Below are positions 1,390 to 27,632 of a stretch of 64,000 bases of DNA, in pieces; position 1 is the first letter of the stretch; each line of letters begins with the position of its first letter. The stretch lies in IMG/VR virus record IMGVR_UViG_3300029522_000074; one strand, given 5' to 3'. The DNA is from a virus (lineage: Duplodnaviria > Heunggongvirae > Uroviricota > Caudoviricetes). A program made the position numbers and the translations under genes. The notes below the pieces were generated by a model. It saw nothing but the letters and a program-made list of their open reading frames with translations, was not told where the DNA came from and did no database searches.

Positions 1390-1433
1390 CGCTATATATA
1401 GCGTATATTCATTTAGCGCACACTATATATAGT
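1390..1433. promoter_or_regulatory. paired palindromic sites CGCTATATATAGCG and CACTATATATAGT, centres about 31 bp apart
   Basis: Two near-perfect 12-14 bp palindromes sharing the core CTATATATAG, in an intergenic gap; same architecture recurs at 19710 and 27585. Confidence 0.45.
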
Positions 1434-1441
1434 ATCTTATT

Positions 1442-1735
1442 TTACTCTACCACGTCCCAATCTTCTGCAAGCATATCTGTCTGACTTGCAAGCCATCCAA
1501 TAACTAATTTATTGTCTGCTGTCTTCATATCAATATGTGGGCAAATTTCAATTTCGTCCATGCCTTTATCTTTACAAAAACTTCTTAAATAATTTGCTAT
1601 TTCTGGTTTCATTTCATCTAAATGAACAACACTTCCTGTTGTCATATACAAAAACATGCCCTTACCATTCCATCCAACTCTTGCTACCTTTTTACCGTTC
1701 TTTAAAGCTTCAATTGCCTGTCCAAAATTCATCAT
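1442..1735 (-). CDS. DUF2829 family protein, Tad2-like (candidate Thoeris anti-defence gcADPR sponge)
   Basis: N-terminal FGQAIEALKNGKKVARVGWNGKGMF and C-terminal GWLASQTDMLAEDWDVV match, as I recall it, the DUF2829 signature to which phage Tad2 belongs; 97 aa. Confidence 0.6.
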   Translation of the reverse strand: MMNFGQAIEALKNGKKVARVGWNGKGMFLYMTTGSVVHLDEMKPEIANYLRSFCKDKGMDEIEICPHIDMKTADNKLVIGWLASQTDMLAEDWDVVE

Positions 1736-1756
1736 TTTAAAATCTCCTTTACTTCG

Positions 1757-2122
1757 TTATCTCCAACTGATACTGTAATATGGTTCATTGTACTGAGTAC
1801 CAGTCTCGACTTTATAACCAAGTTCTTCTAATTTCTTTCGTGTTTCAGGTTTCAAAGAACCATCTTCACTAATTGAAAATTTGCCATCTGCAATCGCATC
1901 TCTAATTAATTTAGATAATTCTGCTAATTGTTGCGTAGTGCAGTTATCAATTGCGTTATTTGTCATCTTATTTGCTTCTGATGCAGACGGAATAACATTC
2001 TTTGGTGACTGAACTTCTGGCATAGGAATGTTGGAAGTAATAGCATCTTCACAACAATCTGCATCGCTACATCCTAAACAAAATTTATAACTTCTGTTAG
2101 TTATTGGGTACTTACAAGTCAT
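1757..2122 (-). CDS. hypothetical protein, Cys-rich N-terminus
   Basis: 121 aa; CxxC-rich N-terminal segment. Confidence 0.4.
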   Translation of the reverse strand: MTCKYPITNRSYKFCLGCSDADCCEDAITSNIPMPEVQSPKNVIPSASEANKMTNNAIDNCTTQQLAELSKLIRDAIADGKFSISEDGSLKPETRKKLEELGYKVETGTQYNEPYYSISWR

Positions 2123-2137
2123 TTATTCATCCTCCTT

Positions 2138-2575
2138 TTAAACCTGTTTATATAACTGATTTTGGAGCTTCCCTAATACCTTATTAACAGCAACCTTGCC
2201 CATTTCTTTATTCCATATTTCACCTTGTCTAACCCTTGCAAAGAATAAAGCATATTCTGAAATATTATTTTCCACATCTTCGTAAAATTTTTCGTCCTCT
2301 TCACTATCATCAAATTCAGATTTACATGAACTAATAATCATCACAGCTAAAAAATCTTTTGCAACCTGTATTAATCCGTCTGATGTCTTGATTTGATCAT
2401 TTAGAAAATCATTTGTTTCTATTGTTGATTTTTCTGGTACAGAAAAATAATATAACTGCTTAAAATCTTGCTCTTTTGTGTCTTCAATATGAATTCCCAT
2501 ATATTCTAATGTAAGTATAGTTTTAAGATTTTCTTCAATCTGTTTTGAATTATTCTCTAATTCTATTGGTATCAC
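2138..2575 (-). CDS. hypothetical protein
   Basis: 145 aa ORF, no recognisable motif. Confidence 0.4.
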   Translation of the reverse strand: MIPIELENNSKQIEENLKTILTLEYMGIHIEDTKEQDFKQLYYFSVPEKSTIETNDFLNDQIKTSDGLIQVAKDFLAVMIISSCKSEFDDSEEDEKFYEDVENNISEYALFFARVRQGEIWNKEMGKVAVNKVLGKLQNQLYKQV

Positions 2576-2842
2576 CTCCTACATTCCAACATATTCAGGA
2601 AATTTTTCATAGATTTTATTCCACTCTTCAATAATTCTTCTATTCATAATTTCCTGATCAATCAATTCTTCTACGATTTTTGCAGTAGCACACTGCGTCT
2701 GACTTCTAAGAATTTTACAAGCATTTTTCTTATACTCTTCTAAATCTTCTATAGAAACACTTGACAGCATTGTATTTTCATTTGTTAATCCTTGCATTAC
2801 TGATGGTGTTATCATTCGTTTCACCTCCACACGAAACCGATA

Positions 2843-3403
2843 TTACTTATTTTTTGATTCAAATTCTTCAAATGCTTTATAAAACTCACTGCCTTTTATC
2901 TCTTCAAAACCATTTTCATAAGGAGTTAATGAATTATAGCGATTAGTACTCATACGTAAGTATTGTTTTCCATTGTATTCAAAACTTGTTCTTGAATAGC
3001 CACCCATTTCCGTTTCTTCGAAGTAGTCTCCACACCTCAAAGGATAAGCATTAATAACTATCTCCTTTTTAATACATTCATCTTGAAATTGCTTTAATAT
3101 TTTGCAACCTTTTTTAAACTTTCTCATACTTTGACCTTCAAACATTTTAGGTTTGTTTAATTGATTACCAAATTTTTCACTATTTTCCTGCACATCATCA
3201 ATATACAATTCAATATTACTTTTTGTGTTTTCCTTAAACGCAACATTAACATTACCATCTCCACGCATATAATAATGATTTCCACTTATTCCTATGCGAT
3301 TGAAAAAATCTTTGATAAATTCTCTTCTGTTTTTTTCTATTACTTCATCACGATGTAACCCTTTTAAAAAATCTTCATTTGTTACAATATAAAATTTCTC
3401 CAT
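2843..3403 (-). CDS. hypothetical protein
   Basis: 186 aa ORF directly downstream of the AdSS-like gene. Confidence 0.4.
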   Translation of the reverse strand: MEKFYIVTNEDFLKGLHRDEVIEKNRREFIKDFFNRIGISGNHYYMRGDGNVNVAFKENTKSNIELYIDDVQENSEKFGNQLNKPKMFEGQSMRKFKKGCKILKQFQDECIKKEIVINAYPLRCGDYFEETEMGGYSRTSFEYNGKQYLRMSTNRYNSLTPYENGFEEIKGSEFYKAFEEFESKNK

Positions 3404-3445
3404 TTTTTACCTCCATATTTCCAAAAGAACGAATCTTTCTTGTTC

Positions 3446-4537
3446 TCAGTTCACATCATTATGTGTTTCACCATCTGAGTAATAAATATTCCAATCCTTG
3501 AATAACTCAATCAATTTATCATTATCCCAATCATATTCATTACAATGTGTAATGGTGATTGATTTTTTATCTCCAAAGTTTCCTATATCATTAGAGCATC
3601 TACTATATAATTCTCCTAAATCCAGTGTTCCATATCTCAATGTATCCTGGAATGGATTTGGCACATTTGTTTTATCAAACATATATTCGTTGATAAATCT
3701 CTTATTACATTCAGATGGGAATTTACCAGCACCATGTCTTGTTAAATAAGTACGCGATACATAACAAGTTTCAATATTTATCTCATCATTCCATTCAACA
3801 TTTTCAATTATTCTCTTGGGATTTTTAATACCTGTATTAGACGGTGTTAGATGTGGAAAATATTCTGTGTTGTTCTGATCAAGCAATAAACCTTGTGCAG
3901 CTTCAAATACAATATTGTCAAATTGATTTAAGAAATAATTATCTGATATAGCCAATGAGTGATTATTCATAAAATCCCAATCATCTAAAAAGTGTTCAAA
4001 TATACCATTATCAAGGAATATTTTTGACCATTCATCTGTTAATATAATATTCTCTCTTTCAAATTGTTCTAAGTAGTATTCCCTGATATGATTATCTACA
4101 TCAGTTATGCCAGCTTTATATCTTTTGATAGTTTCAAAAATTCCCAAGCCACAACTACCATGTTTATTTTTTCCACGATTTTCTTCTATAATCTGATTTG
4201 CCATCATATCAAAAGGTGTAGTCAACATACAATTTTGATTGATATAAACATTCGTAATATATCCTAATTTCATCAATTCATCATATTCCTGCTTAAAGAT
4301 AATTGGATTAACAATAAAATCCTCAGATAAATATGTACTTGCATGATTGAATGTTCCAGATCCAAAATGATGAAAGACATGTCTGATTCCATCAGGCGTT
4401 GTTACGGTATGTCCTCTCTGAGCACCACCATTTGAACAAACAACAATACTATTAGGTTTCTGTGAGAAATAATCTGTCATTAATCCCTTTCCACAATCTC
4501 CAAAGTTAGCACCTATTACAATCTTAATGTCTTTCAT
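3446..4537 (-). CDS. adenylosuccinate synthetase family protein, short form (PurA/PurZ-like)
   Basis: P-loop IVIGANFGDCGKG (compare GDEGKGK), GAQRGHTV (compare GHNAGHTV), EAAQGLLLDQNNTEYFPHLTPSNT (compare [22 protein letters not shown]), YLTRHGAGKFP (compare TTRVGSGPFP); 363 aa, the size of archaeal-type PurA and phage PurZ. Confidence 0.75.
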   Translation of the reverse strand: MKDIKIVIGANFGDCGKGLMTDYFSQKPNSIVVCSNGGAQRGHTVTTPDGIRHVFHHFGSGTFNHASTYLSEDFIVNPIIFKQEYDELMKLGYITNVYINQNCMLTTPFDMMANQIIEENRGKNKHGSCGLGIFETIKRYKAGITDVDNHIREYYLEQFERENIILTDEWSKIFLDNGIFEHFLDDWDFMNNHSLAISDNYFLNQFDNIVFEAAQGLLLDQNNTEYFPHLTPSNTGIKNPKRIIENVEWNDEINIETCYVSRTYLTRHGAGKFPSECNKRFINEYMFDKTNVPNPFQDTLRYGTLDLGELYSRCSNDIGNFGDKKSITITHCNEYDWDNDKLIELFKDWNIYYSDGETHNDVN

Positions 4538-4554
4538 CTCTTAAATCTCCTATC

Positions 4555-5454
4555 CTACCAAGTAATTCCTTCTGAGTTAGAAGGTGTAGTAACTGTATCT
4601 GTAACATTATTCTCTGCTTCACTAACAATAATATCTACAATCTCATTTGTAATACTATCCATAGTTACTCTTCTAAAGTGTGTATCATCAAGATACTTCT
4701 TGTAGGACTTCTCAATTTCTTCTTCATCCCATCTGTGACCGTGATTTACATCTAAATGATAAATGTTAAACTTCTGAGAAGCCTCTTCGTATAAATCCTT
4801 AGTCTCTACATCAGACTGAAGGTTATCACCTGTCACCTCTGATAAGCCATGACCTCTACTCTTAAATGGAAGATATGGATTTAACTGCTCATCACCCATT
4901 GTAATAATAATTCCTTTTCTTCTACGGTTTAAGCAATCAAGCTTTGTGTGACGAGAACCGAAATACCATGCTGCTGTGTAGGATTCATAACTATTTCCAC
5001 CACCGCCAAATTCAAAATAAATCTTGTCAAGCTGTTCAGCAATACGAATATCTGACTCAAACTGTGAAGCCTGAATTGGATAGCTATCACAAGCTAAATC
5101 ACCAATACCCATGATAAGGAACTCAACATCTGTAACCTTTTCATATAACTTAGTCATAATTACATTTAACTTCTTTGCCACTTCAACGGCAGCCTGTCCC
5201 ATAGAACCAGTTACATCAAGTGCAAGAATAACAGGAATTGTGTTTGGATGTTCCTCTGTATCGCAACACTCTCTAATAACATTCTTAGGATCAAGTGCAG
5301 AATCAATATTTCTTGCCTTAAACATGTCCTGATTAGAATAAGAACCTCTAATCATACCATCCGTTGAAACACTCATACCCTTTGTTGTTGAATAACTTAC
5401 ATAACTATCTCTTGTCCATGAACCGCATCCCATATTATGCCTCCTCCTCTTCAT
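4555..5454 (-). CDS. von Willebrand factor A (VWA) domain protein
   Basis: MIDAS motif ILALDVTGSM (DxSxS-type) followed by a VWA-like alpha/beta pattern; start may be an internal Met. Confidence 0.55.
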   Translation of the reverse strand: MKRRRHNMGCGSWTRDSYVSYSTTKGMSVSTDGMIRGSYSNQDMFKARNIDSALDPKNVIRECCDTEEHPNTIPVILALDVTGSMGQAAVEVAKKLNVIMTKLYEKVTDVEFLIMGIGDLACDSYPIQASQFESDIRIAEQLDKIYFEFGGGGNSYESYTAAWYFGSRHTKLDCLNRRRKGIIITMGDEQLNPYLPFKSRGHGLSEVTGDNLQSDVETKDLYEEASQKFNIYHLDVNHGHRWDEEEIEKSYKKYLDDTHFRRVTMDSITNEIVDIIVSEAENNVTDTVTTPSNSEGITW

Positions 5455-6052
5455 CTACTTCTGTATCATCGTCATCATTGCTACTCATATCAAAGTCGAA
5501 CATTCCGTCAAACATATCACCCATATTTCCACCCATCATCATAAGTGGTAACATAGAACTCATTCCACCATTGCCATTCATCATGCCAGCAGAACCATTA
5601 TCACTTTTCATCATCTGAGAAAGCATCATGTACTTAAAGATATTATTTGTACCTTTCTTACCTTTAATAACATCACTTCCAAACATCGAAACAATCTTTC
5701 CATAAAAATATGTATTGCCCATAAATACATGTCTTTCAGGAAGCACGGTTTCAATTGTTGAGTCCTCATAATTGATTACTGTAATCTTTGTCTTATCGGC
5801 TTCAATAACACATCTTGGCTTACCATTTACAAGAATGATGTCACCCTTCTCTACCTTATTAGTTGGAATAATAAAGAAGAATTCCTCTCCAATATCAAAT
5901 ACAAAGTTACTACAGTTTGTGAGCTTGCCAGTCTTGATGTTATATGTCTTATAACCACCATTTGTCTTAACTGCAATTCCACCATTCATAGAAAGTCTAC
6001 ACATTCCACTTCCTACCTTACCAAACATGCCATTTAAAAAATTGTTCATCAT
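5435..6052 (-). CDS. hypothetical protein with Met/Gly-rich region and poly-acidic C-terminus
   Basis: 205 aa; C-terminal MMGGNMGDMFDGMFDFDMSSNDDDDTEVDEEEEA low-complexity tail. Confidence 0.4.
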   Translation of the reverse strand: MMNNFLNGMFGKVGSGMCRLSMNGGIAVKTNGGYKTYNIKTGKLTNCSNFVFDIGEEFFFIIPTNKVEKGDIILVNGKPRCVIEADKTKITVINYEDSTIETVLPERHVFMGNTYFYGKIVSMFGSDVIKGKKGTNNIFKYMMLSQMMKSDNGSAGMMNGNGGMSSMLPLMMMGGNMGDMFDGMFDFDMSSNDDDDTEVDEEEEA

Positions 6053-6838
6053 ATTTATTTCCTCCTATGATATAAAATTATTGTTTACAATTACTTATTC
6101 TCTTAACTGCGACATTCTCATCAATTCTTCTTTGTCTGCTTCTGATAATGTCAATCCTGCTTTAATCCAAGCCTCTGTCTGTTCATCAATTTTCTTCTTA
6201 TATCCACCTTGAATTATCCCATTTTCACTTAGCAACCTCTTACAATTCTCATACTGAATATCATTTGTCTCATGTGCATTTCTAAGATTACTTTCTAAGC
6301 AGCGAATAATATCAATCAGCTCATCTTTTGTCATAGACTTTAATGTACTATCTGAATATGTTCTTCTTCCATCACCTATCGCCATGTTCAACCTGCTTAA
6401 ACAATCTAGCTGGAAATTCGTCTATATCGCCATCTTTATAAGCCTGTTCTTCACCAACCCAAACAATTTCAATTTTATTAGGATTAAAATTTGATCTACC
6501 AATAAAATAAGCCTTCTTACCTTTTTTATAAAATGTTGTATCCTCAATTAATTCAATAATATCTCCTCTTTTCATTCTTTTTCCTCCGATTTTTCATAAT
6601 ACTGTTTTATTAATTAGCTGTCCTATATAATTATTCTCCTATAACTATTTAAAACATCATTTATCTTATCAACTAATATTGTTGGATCACTTGACATACG
6701 ACATACAAATTCATCATTACAATAAACTTCATATACATCATCATATTCTGGTCTTCCCCAACAATCACATCCATTTACAACTTCAGTTTTCTCTATACGA
6801 AATATATTAATCACCTCCCAAGAAAGAAAAATTTCTTT

Positions 6839-7477
6839 CTATGATTCAAACTGATAATCCTTGTTACTTACAAATTTGTCAATTTTTCCATCTTTGAAAA
6901 ATACAAATTCTGCATAAAAATCATCTGTATTTTCTGACATTGCACACGAAACATACTCATCAGATTCCTCGTCATATTTTTCAAACCATCTCTCAACGCC
7001 ATCATCAACTGTTGTATTTTTAAAAACAAAATATGGAAATTCATTTTCGTCAATTGACAAAATATCATTTGCTATTTCGGTAAATCTTTCAATAATATGT
7101 TCTCTTTTTAATACTGGGATATTATCTTCTTCTGATACATCATAAGTATCATTTTGTTTTAAGAATTGCATAATAGAATTTGAAATAATCTGTTTATCAG
7201 ATGTATGAAAAATCTGTTGATTTGACATCTCCCAACAAATCCTATCAGGTGTGTTATCGCACTCATTAATGGATTTGTTAGTTCTTGTCCATACATCGTT
7301 TCCGTCCATTCCAATAATTCCCTTTTTAAAACCAAATGGTGTTTGAATGTAATCATGAATATATTTATCTGGTAAGACGCTCCAAATTATAGGAGAAAAC
7401 CACCATGAGTTTTTATATTCAAATATTTCTTCTCCTGTATAGTCTTTTCTTATTCCATAAATACTACTACTGCTCAT
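6839..7477 (-). CDS. hypothetical protein
   Basis: 212 aa ORF. Confidence 0.4.
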   Translation of the reverse strand: MSSSSIYGIRKDYTGEEIFEYKNSWWFSPIIWSVLPDKYIHDYIQTPFGFKKGIIGMDGNDVWTRTNKSINECDNTPDRICWEMSNQQIFHTSDKQIISNSIMQFLKQNDTYDVSEEDNIPVLKREHIIERFTEIANDILSIDENEFPYFVFKNTTVDDGVERWFEKYDEESDEYVSCAMSENTDDFYAEFVFFKDGKIDKFVSNKDYQFES

Positions 7478-7496
7478 TTATTCTCCTTTCTTATCC

Positions 7497-8258
7497 TTAA
7501 TCTAACCACCTATTATCCAAATAATAGAACCCAAATACCATTCCTCCGATTAAAATAACCCAAAAGATCCAGAAAATAATAATTGGAAAATCAGATTCTA
7601 ACCTTTCTATCGTCTCGTCAATAGTCGAATTATTATAAAATGATGTGTTATCAGAAATGGTTTTATCTCTCAAATCTGTAAAAATTGTTCCTTTATATTC
7701 AGTACCAACGCCATAATATTTATACCTTATATGACTTGATTCCTTGATAGTGTCAATATAATCAGTACCAGGTAAATCAATTTTATTACTTGTGAAATTT
7801 ACTCCACAAAATGATACTTCTTTACACTTAATATCTTCACTTCCGACTCTATCCCAAGTCCAATATGTTTCTGTTGTATAATAAGTTTGTGATTTGCCAT
7901 TAACAGTTCTTGTATGAGCTACTTGTCTTGTATGCATTGTGTATTGCTCTTTGACTTTTTCTACATACATATATTCTCCATCAATTTCAGGATATGTAAC
8001 TGTATCTACTGTTTTCAAATCACCATATACAAACGCATTACCAACATTTGTATCCATTCCATATTGGAACATTTCTTGACTTTCTATCTTAACAGCTTTG
8101 TTATAAATTTCATTTTTATCCATTTGATATTCTGAAATCTTAGAAGAAATCAGAATACCAAACAGAATCATAACTGCAATGATAGAAATACTAGCCAAGA
8201 TTTCACGTTTTGTTATTTCAAAATTGCCAAAATCAAAACCTTTTCTACCATATCTCAT
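7497..8258 (-). CDS. membrane protein with N- and C-terminal TM segments (possible TPM-like partner of LemA)
   Basis: 253 aa; hydrophobic segments near both termini; immediately downstream of LemA, as LemA-TPM pairs are arranged in bacteria. Confidence 0.4.
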   Translation of the reverse strand: MRYGRKGFDFGNFEITKREILASISIIAVMILFGILISSKISEYQMDKNEIYNKAVKIESQEMFQYGMDTNVGNAFVYGDLKTVDTVTYPEIDGEYMYVEKVKEQYTMHTRQVAHTRTVNGKSQTYYTTETYWTWDRVGSEDIKCKEVSFCGVNFTSNKIDLPGTDYIDTIKESSHIRYKYYGVGTEYKGTIFTDLRDKTISDNTSFYNNSTIDETIERLESDFPIIIFWIFWVILIGGMVFGFYYLDNRWLD

Positions 8259-8261
8259 AGA

Positions 8262-8813
8262 CTAATCCTCTTTAAACAAATCCTGCGGAGCATCAACTGG
8301 TGCATTGTAATCCAAATACTCATATTCCTGTACTTCATATCCAAGCAATCCAAGAAACTGTCTTGTAGGGAACTTTCTCACATATCGTTTGTATTCCTTA
8401 ATCTGTTTATTGTAATTGCTGCGATATTCTGCAATCATATTCTCTGTCATAGATAACTCATTCATAAGAGTCTTATAGTTCTCATTGGACTTCAACTCAG
8501 GATATGCTTCTGCAACTGCTGTAATAGCTGTTGTTACATTCTCAATATCCCCTGTTGATCCACGACCATCTGCAACCGCTGTCAATGTATCAGCTTCATG
8601 TTTGTCATACTGTTTTACACAATCAGCAAGGTTATATACAAGATCAACTCTTCGCTTTTCCTGTACCTTAATATCTGATGACGCTGTATTTACCTGCTCT
8701 TCAAGTGCAATAGCCTTATTCTGTGAACTCTGTACACCAAATACAATCATCAAAATAACTGCTAATACTCCTACGCCAATAATTACTGGCACTTTCCAAT
8801 TTGTGTTCTTCAT
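8262..8813 (-). CDS. LemA family protein
   Basis: N-terminal TM, then AYPELKSNENYKTLMNELSMTENMIAEYRSNYNKQIKEYKRYVRKFPTRQF matching the LemA signature. Confidence 0.7.
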   Translation of the reverse strand: MKNTNWKVPVIIGVGVLAVILMIVFGVQSSQNKAIALEEQVNTASSDIKVQEKRRVDLVYNLADCVKQYDKHEADTLTAVADGRGSTGDIENVTTAITAVAEAYPELKSNENYKTLMNELSMTENMIAEYRSNYNKQIKEYKRYVRKFPTRQFLGLLGYEVQEYEYLDYNAPVDAPQDLFKED

Positions 8814-8947
8814 TTAAAATCTCCTTTATATGTAATATTTTTATTAGTTACACTGTAATATTCTCTTATTTGTTGGGATTCCCATAGCCGAATGGCTTAG
8901 ATATGATTAAAAATTTTCCAATGAAAGATTGGTTTACTGCGAAACCA

Positions 8948-9259
8948 CTACTTACTCTTCTTTACAGAAGTATTATTAACTGACTTCTGAATATTCTTCA
9001 TAAGCTGAATATTGTCGTTAATCATAAGTGCTAATGCCTGATCCTCTGTAAATCCAACATTTATATATGCATCAAACATATTTTTCTTAGTTCTCGCCTG
9101 AATTGCAGGATACTCAGTATTCTCAGAATAATCCTTTGCAATGATCATAAGTTCCTTCAGAACATCATATATAGGCTCTTTATACTTTGTAATGTATGTC
9201 TTTACTACCTCTCCTAAACTTTCTGGGTTCTCTGCTAATAATCTTAAAATTGTTTCCAT
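8948..9259 (-). CDS. hypothetical protein
   Basis: 103 aa ORF. Confidence 0.35.
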   Translation of the reverse strand: METILRLLAENPESLGEVVKTYITKYKEPIYDVLKELMIIAKDYSENTEYPAIQARTKKNMFDAYINVGFTEDQALALMINDNIQLMKNIQKSVNNTSVKKSK

Positions 9260-9634
9260 GTTTAATATTCTCCTTTATAAATTTTTTGTTATTCTCCAAA
9301 CTCACAAGTATCACATGTTGAAAAATACTTATCGTGGTCTATGCAGCATTGTGGTCTGCTATCATCTTCATATTTTTCTTTCTTAAAATTTATATAAAAT
9401 TGTTCACATCTACAAGTCAACATAGACGCAATAGACATTCCGTGAATAATAGCCATTTTACACTGATTGTTATCTTTAAACACCGTGGAATCAACCATTT
9501 TATCAAATTCTTCTGAAGCGATATAATCCAATACTTTCTGTTGTAGTTCGGTTGAATCAATAAGTACTTTATAATTATCCATTTAGCACCTCTTTTCATA
9601 AAATCCAACGATATGTTGCTTTCTTATGAAATAA

Positions 9635-12590: not shown

Positions 12591-12605
12591 ATCACCTCTT
12601 TTATT

Positions 12606-14983: not shown

Positions 14984-15053
14984 AAGTTCCTCTTACCTTA
15001 GTAAGTAGTGCGCACTTTATCCTATAGGAACTTTTCTATTTTCCCTTTCTTCT

Positions 15054-15710: not shown

Positions 15711-15762
15711 CTATGTATTCTCTCTTATTTTTCCAAAACTCCAAAGAAAATGCTTCTTTCCT

Positions 15763-16792: not shown

Positions 16793-16856
16793 CTACTTTC
16801 ACAACCATAAGAAACGTGGTTTTCAATGGATTTTTTAACCTCTAAAAGCCTTGATT

Positions 16857-17782: not shown

Positions 17783-18350
17783 TTTTTGTTCACCATTAGT
17801 AGCTGCGCAGCTTTACTCACATGTGAACGTTTTTCCTTTCCTTAATTGTAATTACGTTATTATATTCTCTGTTATTTCTTTCTTATGTCCCATAAATAAG
17901 GGCTACTACATCCACAATTATGAATACCATCACCCAATACACATCTTCTACAGTCTTCATATTCTGCATGAGTTTTACAATATTCTTTTACAGTATTAAT
18001 AGCTTTTATGATATTTTCATCGACTGATTCTGGTGGAATATATTCTCTTAGTTCTACTCTCAAGTTTTCACCTCGCTACCTTCAAATGAAAGGTTTCTTT
18101 CAATGTATTATTTGAACTCTATCTTGTTTCTTTTTAATACCTTAACTGCCTTGTCATAATCGGTTTCAGCTACTTTGATATTTTTCATCTTAGTAGGCTT
18201 TGGTTTTATCCAATGGCGACATTCTGTAATATCTTCGTCATACCACATCAAACCACCTTCGCAATATTTATGATACTGGCAGTCATTGTTACCACATCTA
18301 CTCATTTATGTATCCTCTTACTCTCTTGCTCCTTTCAATGTATTATTCTC

Positions 18351-18725: not shown

Positions 18726-18775
18726 ATCTTACCTCACTTTCTTATCATCCGAAGGAAACTTCGGTTTACTGTGGT

Positions 18776-19478: not shown

Positions 19479-19709
19479 TTATTTACACCTCTTGTTATAT
19501 TATTCTCTATTATTTCTGCCACCAATGTTTCTTTTTATTTTCTTTATAAACATTACAAACATTTGGATAATTACAACTTTTGGTTTCTTCATTGTAATAT
19601 TCGCAAAAATATCCATCTTCACAACCAATATCGCATTCCATTTCAGTATATATTCTCATAAAACCCTCCTAAACTCCTCAAGAAATCTATGTTTCTTGGT
19701 AAAAATATT

Positions 19710-19752
19710 ACTATATATAGTGTCTATATTTTGCACAGACACTATATATAGT
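19710..19752. promoter_or_regulatory. perfect 15-bp inverted repeat ACTATATATAGTGTC / GACACTATATATAGT with 13-nt spacer (paired ACTATATATAGT palindromes)
   Basis: Seen directly; on the minus strand the hairpin is followed by AATATTTTT, so it could also terminate the nadE-containing transcript. Confidence 0.5.
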
Positions 19753-19759
19753 ATTTCAT

Positions 19760-20497
19760 TTACGCCTGATACATAAAACTTGGCATTGGCTGTAATTTAA
19801 ACAGATTTTTCTCATGCATTGAATCAATCTTAGCTTTTACTTCCTCATTTGGCTCAATTCCATCTCTGATATATGCATCTAATTCAGCATAAGTAAATCC
19901 AAGGTTATCTTCATCAGTCTTTCCGCAAAGACCATCGGTAGGTGTCTTATCAACTAATTCTGACGGAAGCCCCAACTCACGACCAATAGCTTTAACCTCT
20001 GTTACTGTAAGCTGAGATAACGGACTGAAATCACCAGCAGCGTCACCATATTTCGTGGCGTAACCCACCCAATCTTCGGAAAGATTACACGTATTTGCAA
20101 CTCGACCATTTACTGTCTGTGATACTGCATAAAGCGTAGTCATACGAATACGAGCAGGAAGATTTGTTGTTGTCTGAATTGATAACTCTTCATCTAATGA
20201 TGTTTTAATTTCATATTCAGTAACATTCACAATTGTTCCGACTGGAATAATAGTACGTGGAATGTCTAAAAAACTGCAAAGTTTACGACTATATTCGATA
20301 TCTCTTTGTCTTCCCTGTGGCATCATCACACCAAAAACTCTATCCTTACCAAGAGCTTCTACACATAATGCAGCTACAACACTTGAATCCTTACCGCCAG
20401 AAATTCCCACTACTGCCATACAATCTTTACCATTCTGTTCAAACCAATTTCTGATCCACTCTACGATTTCATTTTTTACTTTCTTAGCATCAAACAT
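19760..20497 (-). CDS. nadE: NH3-dependent NAD+ synthetase
   Basis: PP-loop VVGISGGKDSSV, ARIRMTTLYAV, DFSPLSQLTVTEVKAIGRELGLP; 245 aa like Bacillus NadE. Confidence 0.85.
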   Translation of the reverse strand: MFDAKKVKNEIVEWIRNWFEQNGKDCMAVVGISGGKDSSVVAALCVEALGKDRVFGVMMPQGRQRDIEYSRKLCSFLDIPRTIIPVGTIVNVTEYEIKTSLDEELSIQTTTNLPARIRMTTLYAVSQTVNGRVANTCNLSEDWVGYATKYGDAAGDFSPLSQLTVTEVKAIGRELGLPSELVDKTPTDGLCGKTDEDNLGFTYAELDAYIRDGIEPNEEVKAKIDSMHEKNLFKLQPMPSFMYQA

Positions 20498-20513
20498 TTA
20501 TATATTCTCCTTC

Positions 20514-21140
20514 CTACATTCGATTCATCACATCATAGAACCGAATTAAATACTCATATACATTTCTAGGAACTAATTCTTTTACCTTTTCAAATTCACT
20601 CTTTTCACATAAATCTCTAACCAAACTTGAAGAAGTATGATTTTCTGGTATCTGAATTTCTGTGAAGTGATCTTTATATTCCATAAGATTTGCTTCTCTT
20701 AAAGCAGTCTCAAGATTCTGACCTTCTCTCACACATGCTACAAAATTATATTCCTCAACAAACGGTTTCCAATTATACCAAGTTGTAAGTGTTTCAATAT
20801 TATCCATTCCTAAACAAATATAGTATTCGTTGAAGATATAATCTTTTTCATTCATATCTCTTATCTGAGTAATAGTATTGTATGTCCTCTGTGGAAAGAA
20901 GCTGGTTGTTTCAACTTCGGATGCCCACATATTATTTTCATCACAATTTGGCATTGAATTAATTAGCGATACTCGACAATATCCAGGTATCAAAGTCTTT
21001 TTCTTCGCAACATATGTATCATGTGCAGGAATAAACAATATAGCATCGGCATTAACCGCTTTTTTAGCAGTCAATGCCATATCAACATGGGCGTTGGTAA
21101 TTGGATTAAAACTTCCTGGTATAAGTAAAATTTTATTCAT
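20514..21140 (-). CDS. nadD: nicotinate/nicotinamide mononucleotide adenylyltransferase (NadD/NMNAT-like)
   Basis: Nucleotidyltransferase motif PGSFNPITNAHV (HxGH-type); adjacent to pncB and nadE. Confidence 0.6.
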   Translation of the reverse strand: MNKILLIPGSFNPITNAHVDMALTAKKAVNADAILFIPAHDTYVAKKKTLIPGYCRVSLINSMPNCDENNMWASEVETTSFFPQRTYNTITQIRDMNEKDYIFNEYYICLGMDNIETLTTWYNWKPFVEEYNFVACVREGQNLETALREANLMEYKDHFTEIQIPENHTSSSLVRDLCEKSEFEKVKELVPRNVYEYLIRFYDVMNRM

Positions 21141-22434
21141 GATCCATTCTCCAATTAATACATCTCTTTAGATAATCAACATAATCAGGGTTTTTACACA
21201 TGCCTTTGCCTTCTACATCAGACACTTTTGCAACATCCATACCATTACATTTAGTGGTTTTCATTACAATATTTAAAGCAGGAACATCTGTGTCATTACT
21301 CAAATAAGTACCAATTCCAAATGCAACGTTTACTCTATCATGGAAGTGTCTAAATAACTTATCAGCTCTTTCAAAATCAAGACTGTCACTAAACAGAAGT
21401 GTCTTTGTCTTAGGATTGATACCAAGTGACTCATAATGATTAATCATTTTTTCACCCCATTCAATCGGATCGCCACTATCATGTCTTACACCACTGAATA
21501 ATGTTGCATATGTCAACTGAAAATCTTTCAAGAAACAATCAGTTGTAATTGTATCTGTGAGCGCAATACCATTTAACACACCATACTCTCTAACCCATGC
21601 GTCTAGGGCATACCAGTTTGAATATGCTGGATTGTGCTTGTGATTACCCTGACCAGAACACATAATCCATTCATGAGCCATAGTTCCAACAGGTGTAAGG
21701 TTATATTTCTTTGCAAGATATACATTAGAAGTGCCAACAAACTTAGATGGACTATGCAATGTATCATTCAAATGTGAAAACTTCTCAACAACTAATTCCT
21801 GTGCTTCAGCAGAAAGTCTTCTTCTAAGACCAAATTCAGAAAATGTACCAGCATACCAATGACCGCTTCTGAGATTTTCATACTTTTCATCTAATCTCTT
21901 TTTGAAACTATTAAGTAATTCCTCATAGTTATATGCCATTCTGAAATATACTTCGTTTACAATCGCAAGTGTAGGAATCTCATACATAGATGTATTAAGC
22001 CATGTACCAAATGTTTCGATAGAAAGACCGCAATCTGAATCTGTTGTAATTTCAAAATCCTCATATCTTGGCTGCCATAATCTCAGAAAATCAACATACG
22101 AACCTTTCATCCATTTGATATTATCAATATAAGTAAGTTCATCTTCTGTGAATCTCAAACCACAATATAATTTAATCTGTCTGCGAATCTCTTCTACCAT
22201 TTCTGGTGTAAAATGAACATCCTTATTACGACACTTAAAACTCCAAGTGGTTTTATAATCACTAAACTGATGATAAATAGCCTGTCCCATTGACAATTTG
22301 TAAGCATCTGTCTCCAATAAACTTGTAATAATCTGTTTCATATTATTTTCCTTCTTTCTTGATTTGATTAAATATTGTTCTAATATCATATTCTCTGTTT
22401 TCGTACTCATAAAACAGATTAATATACTTATCAA
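21133..22434 (-). CDS. pncB: nicotinate phosphoribosyltransferase
   Basis: LLETDAYKLSMGQAIYHQF matches E. coli PncB LLDTDAYKLHMQQAVFHH; likely true start is the internal Met at about 22341 (about 402 aa). Confidence 0.8.
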   Translation of the reverse strand: MISILICFMSTKTENMILEQYLIKSRKKENNMKQIITSLLETDAYKLSMGQAIYHQFSDYKTTWSFKCRNKDVHFTPEMVEEIRRQIKLYCGLRFTEDELTYIDNIKWMKGSYVDFLRLWQPRYEDFEITTDSDCGLSIETFGTWLNTSMYEIPTLAIVNEVYFRMAYNYEELLNSFKKRLDEKYENLRSGHWYAGTFSEFGLRRRLSAEAQELVVEKFSHLNDTLHSPSKFVGTSNVYLAKKYNLTPVGTMAHEWIMCSGQGNHKHNPAYSNWYALDAWVREYGVLNGIALTDTITTDCFLKDFQLTYATLFSGVRHDSGDPIEWGEKMINHYESLGINPKTKTLLFSDSLDFERADKLFRHFHDRVNVAFGIGTYLSNDTDVPALNIVMKTTKCNGMDVAKVSDVEGKGMCKNPDYVDYLKRCINWRMDHE

Positions 22435-22909
22435 TAAAAGTTATGTCATTTGGATGCATTGCAATTGGCTTACTTTTCTTAGATTTCCACCATTTTAATT
22501 CCTTCTCAAAATTAAACGATTTACCATAATATGCTCTACCTGCTCCAAGATAATCACAAAACATTTCTTTTTTATACTTCGTTGGCATTTCAATAGGATT
22601 CCCACCATTATCAAAATTGTCCTGCCAATATTCGTAATGGTGCTTGTTTCTTCCTTTATGGTGCATCCAAGCTGCTGACCAACCATTCTCTTTCTTACAA
22701 GCATCTATTGGACTTGAAGTACCTTGATAATACTTAACACTCTCCCAAAATTCTGTTGGAGAAAATTTAGATAAATCATGTACTAACCCTTGAAATGGAA
22801 TTCCCACTTTACAGCAATAGTAGAACACCCAATGTTTATGCGTACAGACTTTCTTAAAATGTCTAAAAGTATTAATGATATAATTCTTATACTTCATTAT
22901 TCTCTCCAA
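22343..22909 (-). CDS. hypothetical His-rich protein, possible HD-type phosphohydrolase
   Basis: H...HDLSK...MHHKGRNKHH pattern loosely resembles an HD metal-binding signature; 188 aa inside the NAD cluster. Confidence 0.3.
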   Translation of the reverse strand: MERIMKYKNYIINTFRHFKKVCTHKHWVFYYCCKVGIPFQGLVHDLSKFSPTEFWESVKYYQGTSSPIDACKKENGWSAAWMHHKGRNKHHYEYWQDNFDNGGNPIEMPTKYKKEMFCDYLGAGRAYYGKSFNFEKELKWWKSKKSKPIAMHPNDITFIDKYINLFYEYENREYDIRTIFNQIKKEGK

Positions 22910-23411
22910 TCACTTCGATCTGACACATCTTCATAGTTGCTAATGCAGCCTTATGAGTATTAGGTGTGACACCCGCACAACAACTTGCGTCTACTGTAAT
23001 ATCAATTTCAGGATAATTTGCTCTAATAATAAGTGCATTTGAAACCACACAGATGTCGGTACATAATCCGCAAATCTCAACACTTTCAAATTTAAAATCA
23101 TCCCAATGAGTCCATCCAAAAGTAATTTTGTCAATCAGAATGTCATTATCAATATCAAAATCTAACTTATCTGAAATCTGCCAACCAACAGTATTCTTTA
23201 CACAGTGAATAACAGGAAGATGTACACCTTCATATGTCTCTAAATAATTCTCAGGGTGTGTGTCTCTTGTAAAGATTATCTGTTTACCAGCATCCTTGTA
23301 CTCCTTAATTTTCTTTGCTACATTTGATACAATCGCCTGTGCTTCCTTTGTACCAAGTGTTCCATCAATAAAATCATTCTGCATATCTACAACAATTAAT
23401 GTTTCTCTCAT
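22887..23411 (-). CDS. pncA: nicotinamidase (isochorismatase-family cysteine hydrolase)
   Basis: VVDMQNDF catalytic Asp, metal site TRDTHPENY...H, catalytic Cys in ICGLCTDICV. Confidence 0.8.
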   Translation of the reverse strand: MRETLIVVDMQNDFIDGTLGTKEAQAIVSNVAKKIKEYKDAGKQIIFTRDTHPENYLETYEGVHLPVIHCVKNTVGWQISDKLDFDIDNDILIDKITFGWTHWDDFKFESVEICGLCTDICVVSNALIIRANYPEIDITVDASCCAGVTPNTHKAALATMKMCQIEVIGENNEV

Positions 23412-23506
23412 TTTGCTACCTCTTTTCTTTTTTTATATGTATTTATTCTCTGAAACTCAGAAGAAATTCCGCTTTCCTGCGAACTTCATATTATGTTATT
23501 CTCTAT

Positions 23507-24856
23507 TTAATATTCCCAATCATCATTCCTAACTTGGAATACATCGCCACACTCTTCAATATCTGGATAATTATATGTGGCAACATTCATAGCATATTTA
23601 TCTATTTCGTATGCTTTATATGTAATATTTGTAAATCCCATTTTCTCCAAACAATACCTGCCAGTAGCAATACCATCATACAAACTTAGAACTTCAATAG
23701 GATAATCTCGTGGAACATTCTTCAATCCATGATTTAAAATGTGAATAATTACTTCTGCCGTCCATCCATTGCCAATTTGTTTATATCTCTGAGTAGCACT
23801 GTTTTTTGGTGCTGCTGTATAATTATCTGGTAATGTCTGTAGTCTTTCACATTCTAATGGTGTTAATTTACGGATAAGATAATATCCATCTTTTAGTTTT
23901 ATTGGGTATAATCCATCTTTATAGCCAATAAGACCGTCTTTAACAAGATAGATCATTTTCCCATCAACAGATAAATTTCCATTCTCATACCATTCAATCT
24001 TTTTATATTTGCTTAAATCAATTACTTCTATCTCTTCACACATAACATTGTATGGAACACCTTTATGCAGATTTGCCAATAGACACTGAGACTTGTCTTT
24101 GTTAGATACTTGAATATATCCAAAATCAAAATGATTTCTTCCACCTGCTACAGTTCTGACCATATATTCCATTTCTTTTTCACTGAGATGTTTAAAACTG
24201 TCTTCTGTAATGGAAATTGGTGTCATATACAAACCAGTTTTTGCACCTTGACCACCACCGTTACTTGTAAGATTTACACTTTTCCCATCTGAACTATATA
24301 CTCTATGAGCCTGAGCAGTTGTGTCTATATCACCAATACGAATAGGTTCATCACTTTCTGCAATATTAACAGGTGTAAAAGCTACTTGAGTATGATGTTT
24401 TTTTAAATAATCTCGTGCATTTCCTGCTTGATGTTTTAAACAATAGGCTTTCTCTTTATCAACAATTCCATATTCAAGTACGTCTTTTAAAAAGATATGT
24501 CGATCTTCTGGTTGTGGAACATTTGAAATATTTGTACAATAAATTCTCTTCCTCTGTTGTGCTGATACCAAAGCACTATTAATATGTAATAGTGGATAAC
24601 CCAATTCTTCACTAATCTGACTCTTTATTTCTTCCGCAGCGGATTCATTGTTTTCGTACAAAAAGATATCTGGTTTCCACCTTTCTTTCGCCACCACATA
24701 ATTTAAGAATAATTCCCATCCTTCTCCCTCTGCTTTTGTCTCACGATTTTTTCTTTGTGCAATAGACCAATGAGTGCATGGCGAACCACCTATTAACAAA
24801 CGTAATGGTTGTCCATTAAGTTCACAATAAGTATTTTTTTCTTTATTCTCTGTCAA
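23507..24856 (-). CDS. DNA cytosine-C5 methyltransferase with circularly permuted motif order (IV-VI-VIII-TRD-IX-X then I-II-III)
   Basis: GGSPCTHWSIAQ (PC motif IV), FLYENNE (ENV-like VI), QQRKRIY (VIII), RKLTPLECERLQTLPDNY and GNGWTAEVI (IX and X), then C-terminal SLYDGIATGRYCL (motif I FxGxG); probable TTG start. Confidence 0.65.
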   Translation of the reverse strand: MTENKEKNTYCELNGQPLRLLIGGSPCTHWSIAQRKNRETKAEGEGWELFLNYVVAKERWKPDIFLYENNESAAEEIKSQISEELGYPLLHINSALVSAQQRKRIYCTNISNVPQPEDRHIFLKDVLEYGIVDKEKAYCLKHQAGNARDYLKKHHTQVAFTPVNIAESDEPIRIGDIDTTAQAHRVYSSDGKSVNLTSNGGGQGAKTGLYMTPISITEDSFKHLSEKEMEYMVRTVAGGRNHFDFGYIQVSNKDKSQCLLANLHKGVPYNVMCEEIEVIDLSKYKKIEWYENGNLSVDGKMIYLVKDGLIGYKDGLYPIKLKDGYYLIRKLTPLECERLQTLPDNYTAAPKNSATQRYKQIGNGWTAEVIIHILNHGLKNVPRDYPIEVLSLYDGIATGRYCLEKMGFTNITYKAYEIDKYAMNVATYNYPDIEECGDVFQVRNDDWEY

Positions 24857-25007
24857 AATCCTTTAATCTACAGAGATTGCGCAATCATTTATCCTAGAAT
24901 TTACTGTTAAATCCTTTCTTCTTAATTATTTTGTTATAAAATCCTATGGACTTTGCACGTCTGCAAAAACCATAAAAAAAAAATATTTCTTGTTACTTTT
25001 ATTTGGA

Positions 25008-25052
25008 AAATTTGGCTGAATCGCCAAGATAGAAATTTCTATATTTGATTAT
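25008..25052. repeat. copy A of ~45-nt intergenic motif AAAATTTGGCTGA...TAGAAATTTCTATATTTGATTATT
   Basis: Near-identical second copy at 25409-25459; both lie between consecutive minus-strand genes. Confidence 0.5.
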
Positions 25053-25382
25053 TTACTCATAAATTGTTACTGTTTTTGCCTCTTTTTGTCTTACATGAAA
25101 TCCTTGAATTGGAATAATTTCATATGGTGCAATATCCATAACTTGTTTAATATTAGGAAATTCTGTTCCTCTAACCTGAACCCATCTGCCATGTCCTCTC
25201 ATTGCTTCTATTGTTGTCATACATCCGCTTAACTTATGAAAATATTCCTCTTCACATAGAAAATATTTTCTATCATAACTGCAACTTCCAACATCCTCAT
25301 AACTTTTCATAGTCACTACAACCATAGGGATATTATTATCCAAAACAACATCTCCTATTTGTGGAATATACTTTTTACTCAT
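25053..25382 (-). CDS. hypothetical protein
   Basis: 109 aa ORF with RBS GAGAGGTGA. Confidence 0.45.
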   Translation of the reverse strand: MSKKYIPQIGDVVLDNNIPMVVVTMKSYEDVGSCSYDRKYFLCEEEYFHKLSGCMTTIEAMRGHGRWVQVRGTEFPNIKQVMDIAPYEIIPIQGFHVRQKEAKTVTIYE

Positions 25383-25408
25383 TCATTTCACCTCTCTTAT
25401 TTATTAAT

Positions 25409-25459
25409 AGAAAAATTTGGCTGATCAGCCGTGAATAGAATTACTTCTATATTAGATTA
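25409..25459. repeat. copy B of ~45-nt intergenic motif; contains palindrome TTGGCTGATCAGCCAA
   Basis: 27-77 nt upstream of the start codon of gene 25053..25382; candidate promoter or operator. Confidence 0.5.
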
Positions 25460-25463
25460 TTCT

Positions 25464-25919
25464 CTACTTTTCAAATGGCTTATCCATGATACAATTATTA
25501 ACCATATCTCTAAATGCAAAAGGGGAATCAATTACTCTATCTGAATATTTGAAATGTTTTAGAAACTCAAGTACCTCATGTGCATCTCTATGTGATAATG
25601 GGATAAACTTCACATATTCAGGATGTCCTTTAATACACACAACTGCCCAAGAATGATCATCAGAATAAAAACCAATATCCGTTCCAACATCTATCATCGA
25701 GTTCATCATTTTGTGACAATCATCAATTAATTTATAAGAATTTTTATATGTAACGGTTGCGTCAGATAATTGAATATTGGCATATCTATATCTTTCCTCT
25801 GCATCTTTGCATTTTTCTATTGCATCTTTATATGATTTCTTGGCTGCTTCCACTTGAAACAAATCATCCTCCAATAACCAATGTCTTAATTTATCTCGTA
25901 TTTTGTCCTTTAATTTCAC
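25464..25919 (-). CDS. hypothetical protein
   Basis: 151 aa ORF. Confidence 0.4.
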   Translation of the reverse strand: MKLKDKIRDKLRHWLLEDDLFQVEAAKKSYKDAIEKCKDAEERYRYANIQLSDATVTYKNSYKLIDDCHKMMNSMIDVGTDIGFYSDDHSWAVVCIKGHPEYVKFIPLSHRDAHEVLEFLKHFKYSDRVIDSPFAFRDMVNNCIMDKPFEK

Positions 25920-25923
25920 TTTT

Positions 25924-26367
25924 TCACCTCTTACATACTAAAATCTCAACATCCGTATCCGCAAAAATGCTTTTAATCTGTTCTGAGACATCGTTCCAAT
26001 TCAGCCTATCTAAACCACAACCAATTACAGGCATTGCAATCTTTTTGATATTATTATCCAAACAAATCTGTTTCATCTTTTCAAGTGCAAATTTCATTGT
26101 GATAATTGTTGGCTTGTGAAAATATCTCTCTTTTGTAATAAGATTAAATACTCTACCCTCTAATAGACAGTCACCACCAATTTTCTTATGAGTATACTGG
26201 TTAATATAATCTGGATATTTTGTCTGTAATTTTCGTTTCATATCAAATCTTTTATTGAATTCAACTACAATTCCTTTACCCATTCCAAAATCTGCACTGA
26301 TACAATGTGCTAAATTGTAATCTTCTGAAACTGTAAACAAGTCTTTATTCTCTTCACTGTATGTCAT
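25924..26367 (-). CDS. macro domain protein (ADP-ribose binding or processing)
   Basis: LAHCISADFGMGKGI and IAMPVIGCGLDRLNW match macro-domain Gly-rich loops; 147 aa. Confidence 0.7.
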   Translation of the reverse strand: MTYSEENKDLFTVSEDYNLAHCISADFGMGKGIVVEFNKRFDMKRKLQTKYPDYINQYTHKKIGGDCLLEGRVFNLITKERYFHKPTIITMKFALEKMKQICLDNNIKKIAMPVIGCGLDRLNWNDVSEQIKSIFADTDVEILVCKR

Positions 26368-26377
26368 TTATTTCACC

Positions 26378-26920
26378 TCACTTATTCGTAATCATATCCA
26401 AAAACAACAACTCATCTTTCTTCAATGTAATATCATAATCTTTCCATTTTTCCATCAGTTCTCTTATATCAAATCCATGCTCTGCAATTACCGCATAGCC
26501 ATGAGGAGTTTTATGGCAGTCATTGTGAATACCTAATAATCCCAAATCTGTTCTAAATTGACCAAGTAATTCTTTGTCATCCACATCAAAATCAAACAGC
26601 CACTTACTCTCATCACGATTTTGTACCTGTAGTGCAACGGATGCCAATGTGCGATTAAGCTGTGTCACACTTGGCTTATCTCTCAACAGACGGATAATAA
26701 ATTCTTCTCTGATTTTCTCTTCATTCCTAGAATTAACTGATCTATATAATCTTGTCTGTTCACCAGGAACTCCTTTAGCTGCAAAATTCTTAAAAGCTTC
26801 AATTACTTTATCTTCGTTCTCTTTATATTCAAGGATTGTTTCGGCTCGCCCCTTAAAACTTGGAATATCCTTATTGTCTTTATTTCGAGAACGAATTAAA
26901 TATACATATAAGTTTGACAT
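26378..26920 (-). CDS. hypothetical protein
   Basis: 180 aa; co-directional with the macro-domain gene. Confidence 0.4.
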   Translation of the reverse strand: MSNLYVYLIRSRNKDNKDIPSFKGRAETILEYKENEDKVIEAFKNFAAKGVPGEQTRLYRSVNSRNEEKIREEFIIRLLRDKPSVTQLNRTLASVALQVQNRDESKWLFDFDVDDKELLGQFRTDLGLLGIHNDCHKTPHGYAVIAEHGFDIRELMEKWKDYDITLKKDELLFLDMITNK

Positions 26921-27584
26921 TGTATTATTCTCCTAAAATAAATTTCCTTGACTATCTACCATACCTTTGTAACCACACCATTTACATTTACAATGCATGG
27001 AAGCACCATCGAAACTTTCTAAAATATAATCTTTTTGATGACAATGCCATCCTATTTTGCAAAAGAACTTTTGTAATGGTTTAATATAATCTGCTAACAT
27101 GTATGTTACAAATAGCAAAATTAATAAAACTATTACAATTAAAATAACAACATATTTCATGTTTACCTCTTTACCTCACTTATCTTCTTTCCAATCAACC
27201 ATAATAAATGATAAAAATCCCAAACATGGCTCTATTAATAAAATTTTCCATAATTCAACTGGTTCAGGAAAAATAAAATTCATTAATAAATTTAATGTCA
27301 TAAGCCATATTAAAAATCTTATTGTAGATTTATACATGCTATTCTCCTCTTACTTATTCAAAACAATCAGAATGTTACTTAGATATAAAGCATAGAAGAC
27401 TAAATACCCACCACCTGCCAAGAATAATAATTTGAACACAAAGTTGACAACATTCTTTTTCGTCCATGTTATCCCAACAATAAGGTTAAAAAATTCCCAT
27501 AATTAATAAAATAATGTTTAAAATATTCATATTTCACCTCCAAAATTCCTGAAGAAATGTGCGTTTCTTTTTAATGTAAAATAT

Positions 27585-27632
27585 ACACCATATATAGTAT
27601 ATACTACTTATTTTTAATACTATATATGGTGT
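27585..27632. promoter_or_regulatory. perfect 15-bp inverted repeat ACACCATATATAGTA / TACTATATATGGTGT with 18-nt spacer (ATATATAG-palindrome family)
   Basis: Seen directly; third locus of the same motif architecture, upstream of the 27644 gene block. Confidence 0.5.

Follow-up and report, generated by a model that had tools for sequence, protein, structure and literature searches.

Paired NrdR-type operators at intergenic junctions of a human-gut phage, apart from ribonucleotide reductase genes

The window, a 64-kb stretch (64,000 nucleotides) of a tailed phage of the Caudoviricetes (IMG/VR record IMGVR_UViG_3300029522_000074), carries two 16-bp palindromic boxes at each of three intergenic loci. 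The boxes resemble the operator of NrdR, a repressor of ribonucleotide reductase (RNR) genes. GC skew and the map of open reading frames (ORFs) place all window genes on the minus strand, and the loci are therefore described in this direction. Locus 1 follows the gene for the anti-Thoeris protein Tad2 (1442-1735), locus 2 the gene for NadE (19760-20497, PF02540) and locus 3 a 129-aa ORF (27644-28033). Box 1 starts 6 nt past the Tad2 stop codon, 5 nt past the NadE stop and 11 nt past the stop of the 129-aa ORF. The three loci share one layout. The upstream stop is followed by 5-11 nt, palindrome 1, a linker of 15 or 16 bp and palindrome 2. After 12-14 nt comes a short inverted repeat of the AAGAAA-N6-TTTCTT type, then a GGAGG ribosome-binding site (RBS) and an ATG, which places the pair 45-54 nt ahead of the next start codon.

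The exact 10-mer CTATATATAG occurs four times in the 64 kb, at 1392, 1423, 19711 and 19742. Shuffled sequences gave an expectation of 0.11 copies, and four copies were reached in 0 of 100 shuffles. Locus 3 carries a symmetric variant pair, CCATATATAG/CTATATATGG, at 27588/27620. The first-pass annotation, made from the sequence alone, had described paired palindromes about 31-32 bp apart at three intergenic loci. This was confirmed with centre-to-centre distances of 31, 31 and 32 bp for loci 1, 2 and 3. A scan of the window for box pairs against the NrdR consensus found three strong pairs only, all intergenic, with 13-15 of 16 positions identical to ACACTATATATAGTGT and all six key positions in every box (Table 1). 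One further pair was weak, at chance level and within a gene. The motif search thus confined the strong pairs to the three loci, and the 10-mer count lies far above the shuffles.

Table 1. Coordinates of the paired boxes, linkers and short inverted repeats in the window. Box sequences are read on the minus strand; matches are to the six key positions and to the 16-bp consensus ACACTATATATAGTGT.
Feature	Coordinates	Strand	Sequence or length	Matches and remarks
Locus 1 box 1 (upstream box)	1420..1435		ATACTATATATAGTGT	6/6 key, 15/16
Locus 1 linker	1405..1419		15 bp	
Locus 1 box 2 (gene-proximal)	1389..1404		ACGCTATATATAGCGA	6/6 key, 13/16
Locus 1 short inverted repeat	1361..1378	minus	AAGAAA-TTTCGA-TTTCAT	13 nt past box core; outer pair A/A mismatch
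Locus 2 box 1	19739..19754		ATACTATATATAGTGT	6/6 key, 15/16
Locus 2 linker	19724..19738		15 bp	
Locus 2 box 2	19708..19723		ACACTATATATAGTAA	6/6 key, 14/16
Locus 2 short inverted repeat	19679..19698	minus	CAAGAAA-CATAGA-TTTCTTG	
Locus 3 box 1	27617..27632		ACACCATATATAGTAT	6/6 key, 14/16; C at non-critical position 5
Locus 3 linker	27601..27616		16 bp	
Locus 3 box 2	27585..27600		ATACTATATATGGTGT	6/6 key, 14/16
Locus 3 short inverted repeat	27552..27569	minus	AAGAAA-CGCACA-TTTCTT	
Fourth junction	812..840	minus	AGGAAA-CTGACA-TTTCTT	Repeat and downstream sequence kept; operator absent

The literature on NrdR was reached through a full-text search with the 10-mer. The NrdR box has 16 bp, is partly palindromic and has the conserved positions C4, A6, A8, T9, T11 and G13; boxes always occur in pairs, with a linker of 15-16 bp that is free in sequence (PMC13584703). 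All six window boxes have these six nucleotides, and the window linkers match the canonical range. The window boxes are near-identical to two Escherichia coli boxes, nrdAB box 1 (CCCCTATATATAGTGT) and nrdDG box 1 (GCACTATATATAGACT; Table 1 of PMC13584703). The operators of nrdAB, nrdHIEF, nrdDG and nrdJ in E. coli, Streptomyces coelicolor and Listeria monocytogenes have the same box, the same linker and the same place upstream of a gene start (PMC13584703, PMC9110341, PMC12051234). By box sequence and spacing, the window pairs are identified as NrdR operators. The element is a canonical NrdR operator, so its kind is already known.

The pattern was also searched in bacteria, as CTATATATAG-N21/22-CTATATATAG in one genome per bacterial species (genome_contigs). 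At least 120 loci were found, from Nitrospiria to Clostridia, Treponema, Bacteroidales, Proteobacteria and cyanobacteria. Among the matches listed, 149 flanking ORFs start at most 300 nt from the pattern on either side. Their Pfam matches include NRDD (22), ATP-cone (22), Ribonuc_red_lgC, the RNR barrel (16), lgN, the RNR all-alpha domain (11), the class II RNR N-terminal domain (6) and the NrdR zinc ribbon (Zn-ribbon; 2).

The identification narrows the proposals of the first-pass annotation. An operator of a dimeric or tetrameric protein had been suggested, and this was right in kind: the sites match the operator of NrdR, a tetramer that binds two boxes (PMC9110341, PMC13584703). Promoters of a phage sigma factor, given as an example, do not fit. 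The elements are the same palindrome twice, 31-32 bp apart, and not an asymmetric -35/-10 pair at 16-18 bp; a sigma factor would not read identical palindromes. The alternative example, a phage XRE repressor, is not needed, as the identical pattern is the universal NrdR operator beside RNR genes in very diverse bacteria.

A role as RNA was considered as well. On the sense transcript, a hairpin could act as a terminator or attenuator after the upstream operon, or as an RNase III-type processing site that splits messages. The perfect 15-bp inverted repeats reported earlier for two loci are present at loci 2 and 3, within arms that reach 27 nt (85% complementary) and 25 nt (88%), respectively. 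The box pairs of loci 1, 2 and 3 fold with -17.2, -30.8 and -26.6 kcal/mol (z = -1.47, -6.3 and -4.3). Loci 2 and 3 thereby form stems of 18-20 bp, and all sites start shortly past a stop codon. Transcript-end hairpins, as first suggested, fit locus 2. The AATATTTTT noted 3' of its pair on the minus strand is there, and the stem is followed by AUAUUUUUAC, which was called terminator-like. Loci 1 and 3 do not fit: they have no U-rich tail, and the locus-1 fold is no better than shuffles. A stable stem directly followed by a U-tract, as in an intrinsic terminator, is found at locus 2 only.

Outside the 16-bp boxes, complementarity is weak and does not exceed that of bacterial operators; the first linker position alone shows a slight excess. 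When two palindromic boxes are both close to the consensus, each is necessarily an inverted repeat of the other, so the arms need no hairpin function. Selection for a hairpin or cruciform is not supported. An RNA hairpin needs neither the six specific positions nor a linker of 15-16 bp, and it leaves the pattern beside bacterial RNR genes unexplained. It is a very improbable explanation of the sites.

The same pattern was found in IMG/VR contigs at 119 or more loci, most of them on contigs of 90-215 kb. The centre spacing is 31 bp at 68 and 32 bp at 34 of these loci. Proteins of the window are shared by 68 loci, which indicates a large family of related human-gut phages. The family is uncultured and has co-directional genes. 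No GenBank phage was matched by 5 kb of the window in a megablast search. A distant search with the cassette, the operator together with its short repeat, found only one related phage, the unannotated gut phage MT835469.1. Its whole genome has a single operator, ahead of a 130-aa Zn-ribbon ORF.

In these phages, the operator has separated from the RNR genes. Among the matches listed, RNR genes are present in 1 of 121 viral flanking ORFs versus at least 38 of the 149 bacterial ones (Fisher p = 3e-10). The viral flanking ORFs are mostly small proteins without a Pfam match; the matches obtained include RNA-polymerase alpha-CTD-like, Tad4, AAA_24, NAD-dependent ligase and dUTPase-like proteins. 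Bacterial NrdR operators sit upstream of an RNR operon or of nrdR, unlike the three operators of the window. No RNR, ATP-cone or NrdR domain was found in the genes that flank them, nor among the best 25 of 33 Pfam families matched by window ORFs. Contig L295, whose NadE is 100% identical to that of the window, also encodes an anaerobic RNR, nrdD (L611), which has no box pair within 600 nt upstream. Across 80 viral nrdD loci, a perfect box pair is present at one.

The conservation of the operators was followed in relatives that had been sampled through the upstream proteins, independently of the boxes. The NadE sample comprises 80 loci with 77-100% amino-acid identity. All 12 key positions of the two boxes are present in 64 of these and 11 positions in two; in the rest, box 2 is cut at its centre (4), the linker is shortened (2) or the cassette is absent (8). 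In relatives of the 129-aa gene, 66 of 78 loci have 12/12 key positions, the variant with C at position 5 included. The operators are thus kept in about 80-85% of the orthologous loci of both samples. Across 61 distinct NadE-type sequences, the boxes vary least, with a column entropy of 0.08-0.09 bits, against 0.26 bits for the linker and 1.48 bits directly past the small repeat. Linkers are unrelated between cassette types; the constraint is on length, not on sequence. Tad2 is widespread in unrelated phages, and boxes are found with its four closest relatives only. The operator therefore belongs to the phage family and not to Tad2.

Genes beyond the cassette are not conserved. The first gene past the NadE-type cassette falls into 15 unrelated clusters among 25 relatives. 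In the window, an 81-aa ORF follows locus 1 (RBS GAGGAGG, 1352-1358; ATG 1343-1341) and a Cys-rich ORF of 49 aa follows locus 2 (RBS GGAGGG, 19664-19669; ATG 19659-19657). At locus 3, GGAGG (27537-27541) precedes an ATG at 27530, from which a hydrophobic ORF of only 14 codons can be read (MNILNIILLIMGIF; 27486-27530, minus strand). This ORF may be a truncated gene or a leader peptide; the ORFs of relatives are longer there, for example 152 aa in L005. It is followed by a run of short membrane-like ORFs and then by further proteins, one of them with a weak Macro-domain match. On the upstream side, NadE is the last gene of a nicotinamide adenine dinucleotide (NAD)-salvage block (19760-23411) that encodes an isochorismatase-family protein, DUF5662, NAPRTase, a 208-aa ORF and NadE. 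Together with Tad2, this block resembles a set of counter-defence genes directed at systems that deplete NAD. Two of the three operators start directly after the last gene of the NAD-salvage and Tad2 units.

The short inverted repeat is a second conserved element of the cassette. A perfect stem of at least 6 bp at 9-19 nt from the box core is present on 40 of 201 viral cassette sides versus 31 of 1020 controls (p = 2e-15). The same test on bacterial NrdR sites gave 10 of 239 sides versus 29 of 1210 controls (p = 0.13), by which the repeat was rejected as a part of bacterial NrdR sites. The stem is enriched in viral and not in bacterial sites; the small repeat is therefore phage-specific. The few bacterial cases resemble phage-type cassettes, one of them in a Roseburia assembly. 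The repeat may flank the operator on either side. In about one third of the non-redundant cassettes it lies upstream, and the RBS then follows directly after box 2. These cassettes resemble the arrangement described for Listeria nrdDG (PMC12051234).

The gene after such a repeat-upstream operator (L025 3352-3741; MT835469.1 at about 78900) encodes a 130-aa Zn-ribbon protein and appears to start with ATT or ATC, with no in-frame ATG, GTG or TTG near the RBS. GAAA/TTTC inverted repeats without NrdR boxes are also found ahead of RBSs or in other gaps of the window (43297-43314, 39069-39086, 18087-18102 and 6821-6840, minus strand).

Covariation first seemed to give strong support for the small repeat as a stem, but this was biased, because only perfect stems had been selected. 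In a set free of this bias, constant pairing is confined to the GAAA/TTTC core (G-C 168, A-T 9, G-T 6). Of 183 repeats, only 103 have a matched outer pair, and left and right arms occur in mixed combinations, which would fit crossovers inside the small repeat. The repeat may act in RNA as a 5'-proximal stem, bind a second protein or be a mere recombination joint.

Several observations connect the cassette with recombination, and it might be a module boundary or a selfish palindromic insert without any regulatory role. Sequence identity collapses just past the small repeat, where the unrelated genes follow, and the arms of the repeat are combined with mismatches as expected from crossovers inside it. 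The presence of the operator varies at an orthologous junction: the fourth junction of the window lacks an operator of about 60 bp that three relatives carry there (aligned with L086, L003 and L084). In four relatives (L303, L311, L320 and L359), about 50 nt past the NadE stop, box 2 is cut exactly at the palindrome centre (ACACTATAT/GATTAA..., the slash marking the cut) and joined to a different downstream gene. These cuts suggest crossovers at the palindrome centre. A purely recombinational or selfish origin explains neither a perfect NrdR operator with correct spacing nor why the six key positions, compared with the linker, are under purifying selection. The junction was placed in the 3' arm of the small repeat and outside the boxes. 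As the whole explanation of the element it is hardly probable.

Each locus is, on balance, probably an operator for the repressor NrdR (Zn-ribbon plus ATP-cone), most likely that of the host, which would control the downstream accessory genes. Most bacteria have NrdR (PMC9110341). Cryo-electron microscopy showed an NrdR tetramer with dATP and ATP on two boxes about three helical turns apart, with the DNA sharply bent; ATP-only NrdR is a dodecamer incapable of DNA binding (PMC9110341). By analogy with these solved complexes, the two 16-bp boxes of the phage, three helical turns apart on one face of the DNA, would be occupied together by an NrdR tetramer carrying dATP and ATP, with a sharp bend in the DNA. 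The bound tetramer would keep RNA polymerase from the genes directly downstream when dATP is high. One route may be occlusion of a weak promoter with a -10-like TATAGT in the gene-proximal box. Another may be a roadblock to polymerase reading through from the preceding operon, whose end lies 5-11 nt before box 1. At a low ratio of dATP to ATP, NrdR would form ATP-only oligomers without DNA binding, and the downstream genes would be expressed. The operator would have been relocated from RNR genes to the head of hypervariable accessory modules beside the NAD-salvage and anti-Thoeris genes, and linked there with the phage-specific short inverted repeat as the mark of a recombination junction. Two timings are conceivable. 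The modules may be early genes that are shut off once phage NrdD fills the pool of deoxynucleoside triphosphates (dNTPs), or they may be induced when dNTPs are drained.

Some observations speak against control by host NrdR. The window has no nrdR gene, and a motif scan of its six reading frames found no NrdR-type Zn-ribbon. Promoter scans found no sigma-A-like promoter (at least 9 of 12 matches) over the boxes. The TATAGT is the only promoter-like feature there, and the position of a matching -35 is the most variable part of the linker. Without a detectable -35/-10 pair and with a variable -35 region, promoter occlusion is unproven. Clear TTGACA/TATAAT promoters are present elsewhere in the window, at 36-39 kb. 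In 9 of the 78 relatives of the 129-aa gene, the linker has 13 bp. This is outside the spacer lengths tolerated in vitro, 14-17 bp (and 24-27 bp), beyond which binding is about 100-fold weaker (PMC12051234). No function could be assigned to the downstream genes, which leaves a dATP-linked logic without a biological check.

The missing promoter also bears on the main rival, titration by decoy sites. Several operators on replicating phage DNA could soak up scarce host NrdR; host RNR would be de-repressed, the dNTP supply would rise, and regulation of the neighbouring genes would be incidental. The boxes are near-perfect matches to the consensus and several are present per genome, with no recognisable promoter over them and no single type of gene downstream, as the 15 unrelated first genes past the NadE-type cassette indicate. 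A pure decoy, however, would have no use for a place that is always directly upstream of an RBS at a fixed distance from a second conserved element. The related contig with its own nrdD has less need for host RNR, and the single site of MT835469.1 is weak for titration. Decoy sites are an unlikely explanation, less so than those based on RNA or recombination alone.

A protein of the phage itself might read the boxes with NrdR-like specificity, for example a Zn-ribbon-only homologue without ATP-cone; nucleotides would then have no part in the control. NrdR-like Zn-ribbon proteins that lack the ATP-cone are indeed encoded on viral contigs, and gut phages with nrdR homologues are listed in PMC10294663. 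The small viral proteins at L260 2902-3168 and L241 2776-3258 have an NrdR-type Zn-ribbon (RRREC..C..F.T.E) and no ATP-cone; such proteins could bind NrdR boxes without nucleotide sensing. A regular-expression search, limited by its pattern, covered the window plus about 1 Mb of loci with cassettes and found no phage-encoded NrdR. A pattern-based scan of limited sensitivity found 49 viral NrdR-like loci, none of them on a listed cassette-bearing contig. In the window, ORF 38181-38486 looked similar to an NrdR-like Zn-ribbon, but is unrelated to NrdR. A phage reader of the boxes is improbable, somewhat more so than titration.

The phage sites differ from bacterial NrdR operators in several respects. 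They occur in a phage, three within 28 kb, and none is beside an RNR or nrdR gene. They are located at mosaic junctions, have no recognisable overlap with a -35/-10 promoter and are accompanied, 12-14 nt away, by the short inverted repeat, which is missing from bacterial sites. LexA/SOS boxes ahead of phage genes are known as host-repressor operators co-opted by phages. The likeness is that a phage places the operator of a global host sensor-repressor ahead of its own genes, whose expression follows the host signal; unlike in the LexA case, the sensor here would respond to the dATP/ATP ratio and not to DNA damage. A second likeness concerns the mobile regulatory cassettes of T4-type phages termed promoter-early stem-loop (PeSL), reportedly described by Arbiol and colleagues in 2010. 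In both, a short regulatory stem-loop cassette is located between small variable ORFs in a hyperplastic region and at recombination junctions. PeSL carry a sigma-70 early promoter and no repressor operator, whereas the window cassette is a repressor operator with no recognisable sigma-A promoter.

A wider scenario for the phage family is tentative. Human-gut phages of this family may have detached the NrdR operator from RNR genes and turned it, together with the junction repeat, into a portable switch. The switch would head exchangeable accessory and counter-defence modules and allow their expression only at low dATP, and the cassette would also be the crossover point for cargo swaps. Low dATP could mean early infection before phage NrdD fills the pool, or the firing of a host defence that depletes dNTPs.

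No description of NrdR boxes in phage genomes was found in the literature searched, which omits most subscription journals. The use of multiple copies at non-RNR accessory modules, the absence at the nrdD of the family and the coupling to a junction repeat seem not to have been reported before. NrdR is regarded as an RNR-specific repressor, and an operator of consensus strength under selection ahead of non-RNR accessory genes, across hundreds of contigs from gut phages, would be new. If this is true, phages read the dATP/ATP sensor of the host to time gene expression. The box pairs provide a testable handle on the regulation of hypervariable, mostly unannotated islands of phage genes beside those for NAD salvage and anti-Thoeris, and the boundaries between exchangeable modules of these genomes could be recognised simply by the cassette sequence.

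Further features of the window were recorded. A short adenylosuccinate-synthetase-like protein (363 aa; 3446-4537, minus strand) has a best PHROG labelled as the PurZ-type enzyme of 2-aminoadenine phages. Its PDB matches are to ordinary PurA only, and no DatZ/MazZ-like neighbours were found that would support a PurZ or Z-genome. A PurZ identity would connect the handling of dATP with sensing by NrdR. An AT-rich region (36876-37237 and 38933-39091) lies beside two genes for tyrosine recombinases (37238-38245 and 44380-45399). It has dense palindromes (36920-37040) and near-consensus sigma-A promoters (TTGACA-17-TATTAT; TAGACA-17-TGcTATAAT), and is possibly a lifestyle switch region. The window also encodes PemK/MazF, HicA and Zeta toxin domains, RadC, GmrSD_N, a ParB-like protein (61917-62849) and two integrases. 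Taken together, these hint at a plasmid-like or temperate lifestyle. Adjacent genes for tRNA-Lys(ttt) and tRNA-Gln(ttg) are located at 31362-31512 on the minus strand, within an intergenic gap of 243 nt. A 685-aa protein (28055-30112, minus strand) belongs to phrog_1735 (E = 2e-265) and has close homologues in 555 phage records, which include Salmonella, Klebsiella, Bacillus and Clostridioides phages.

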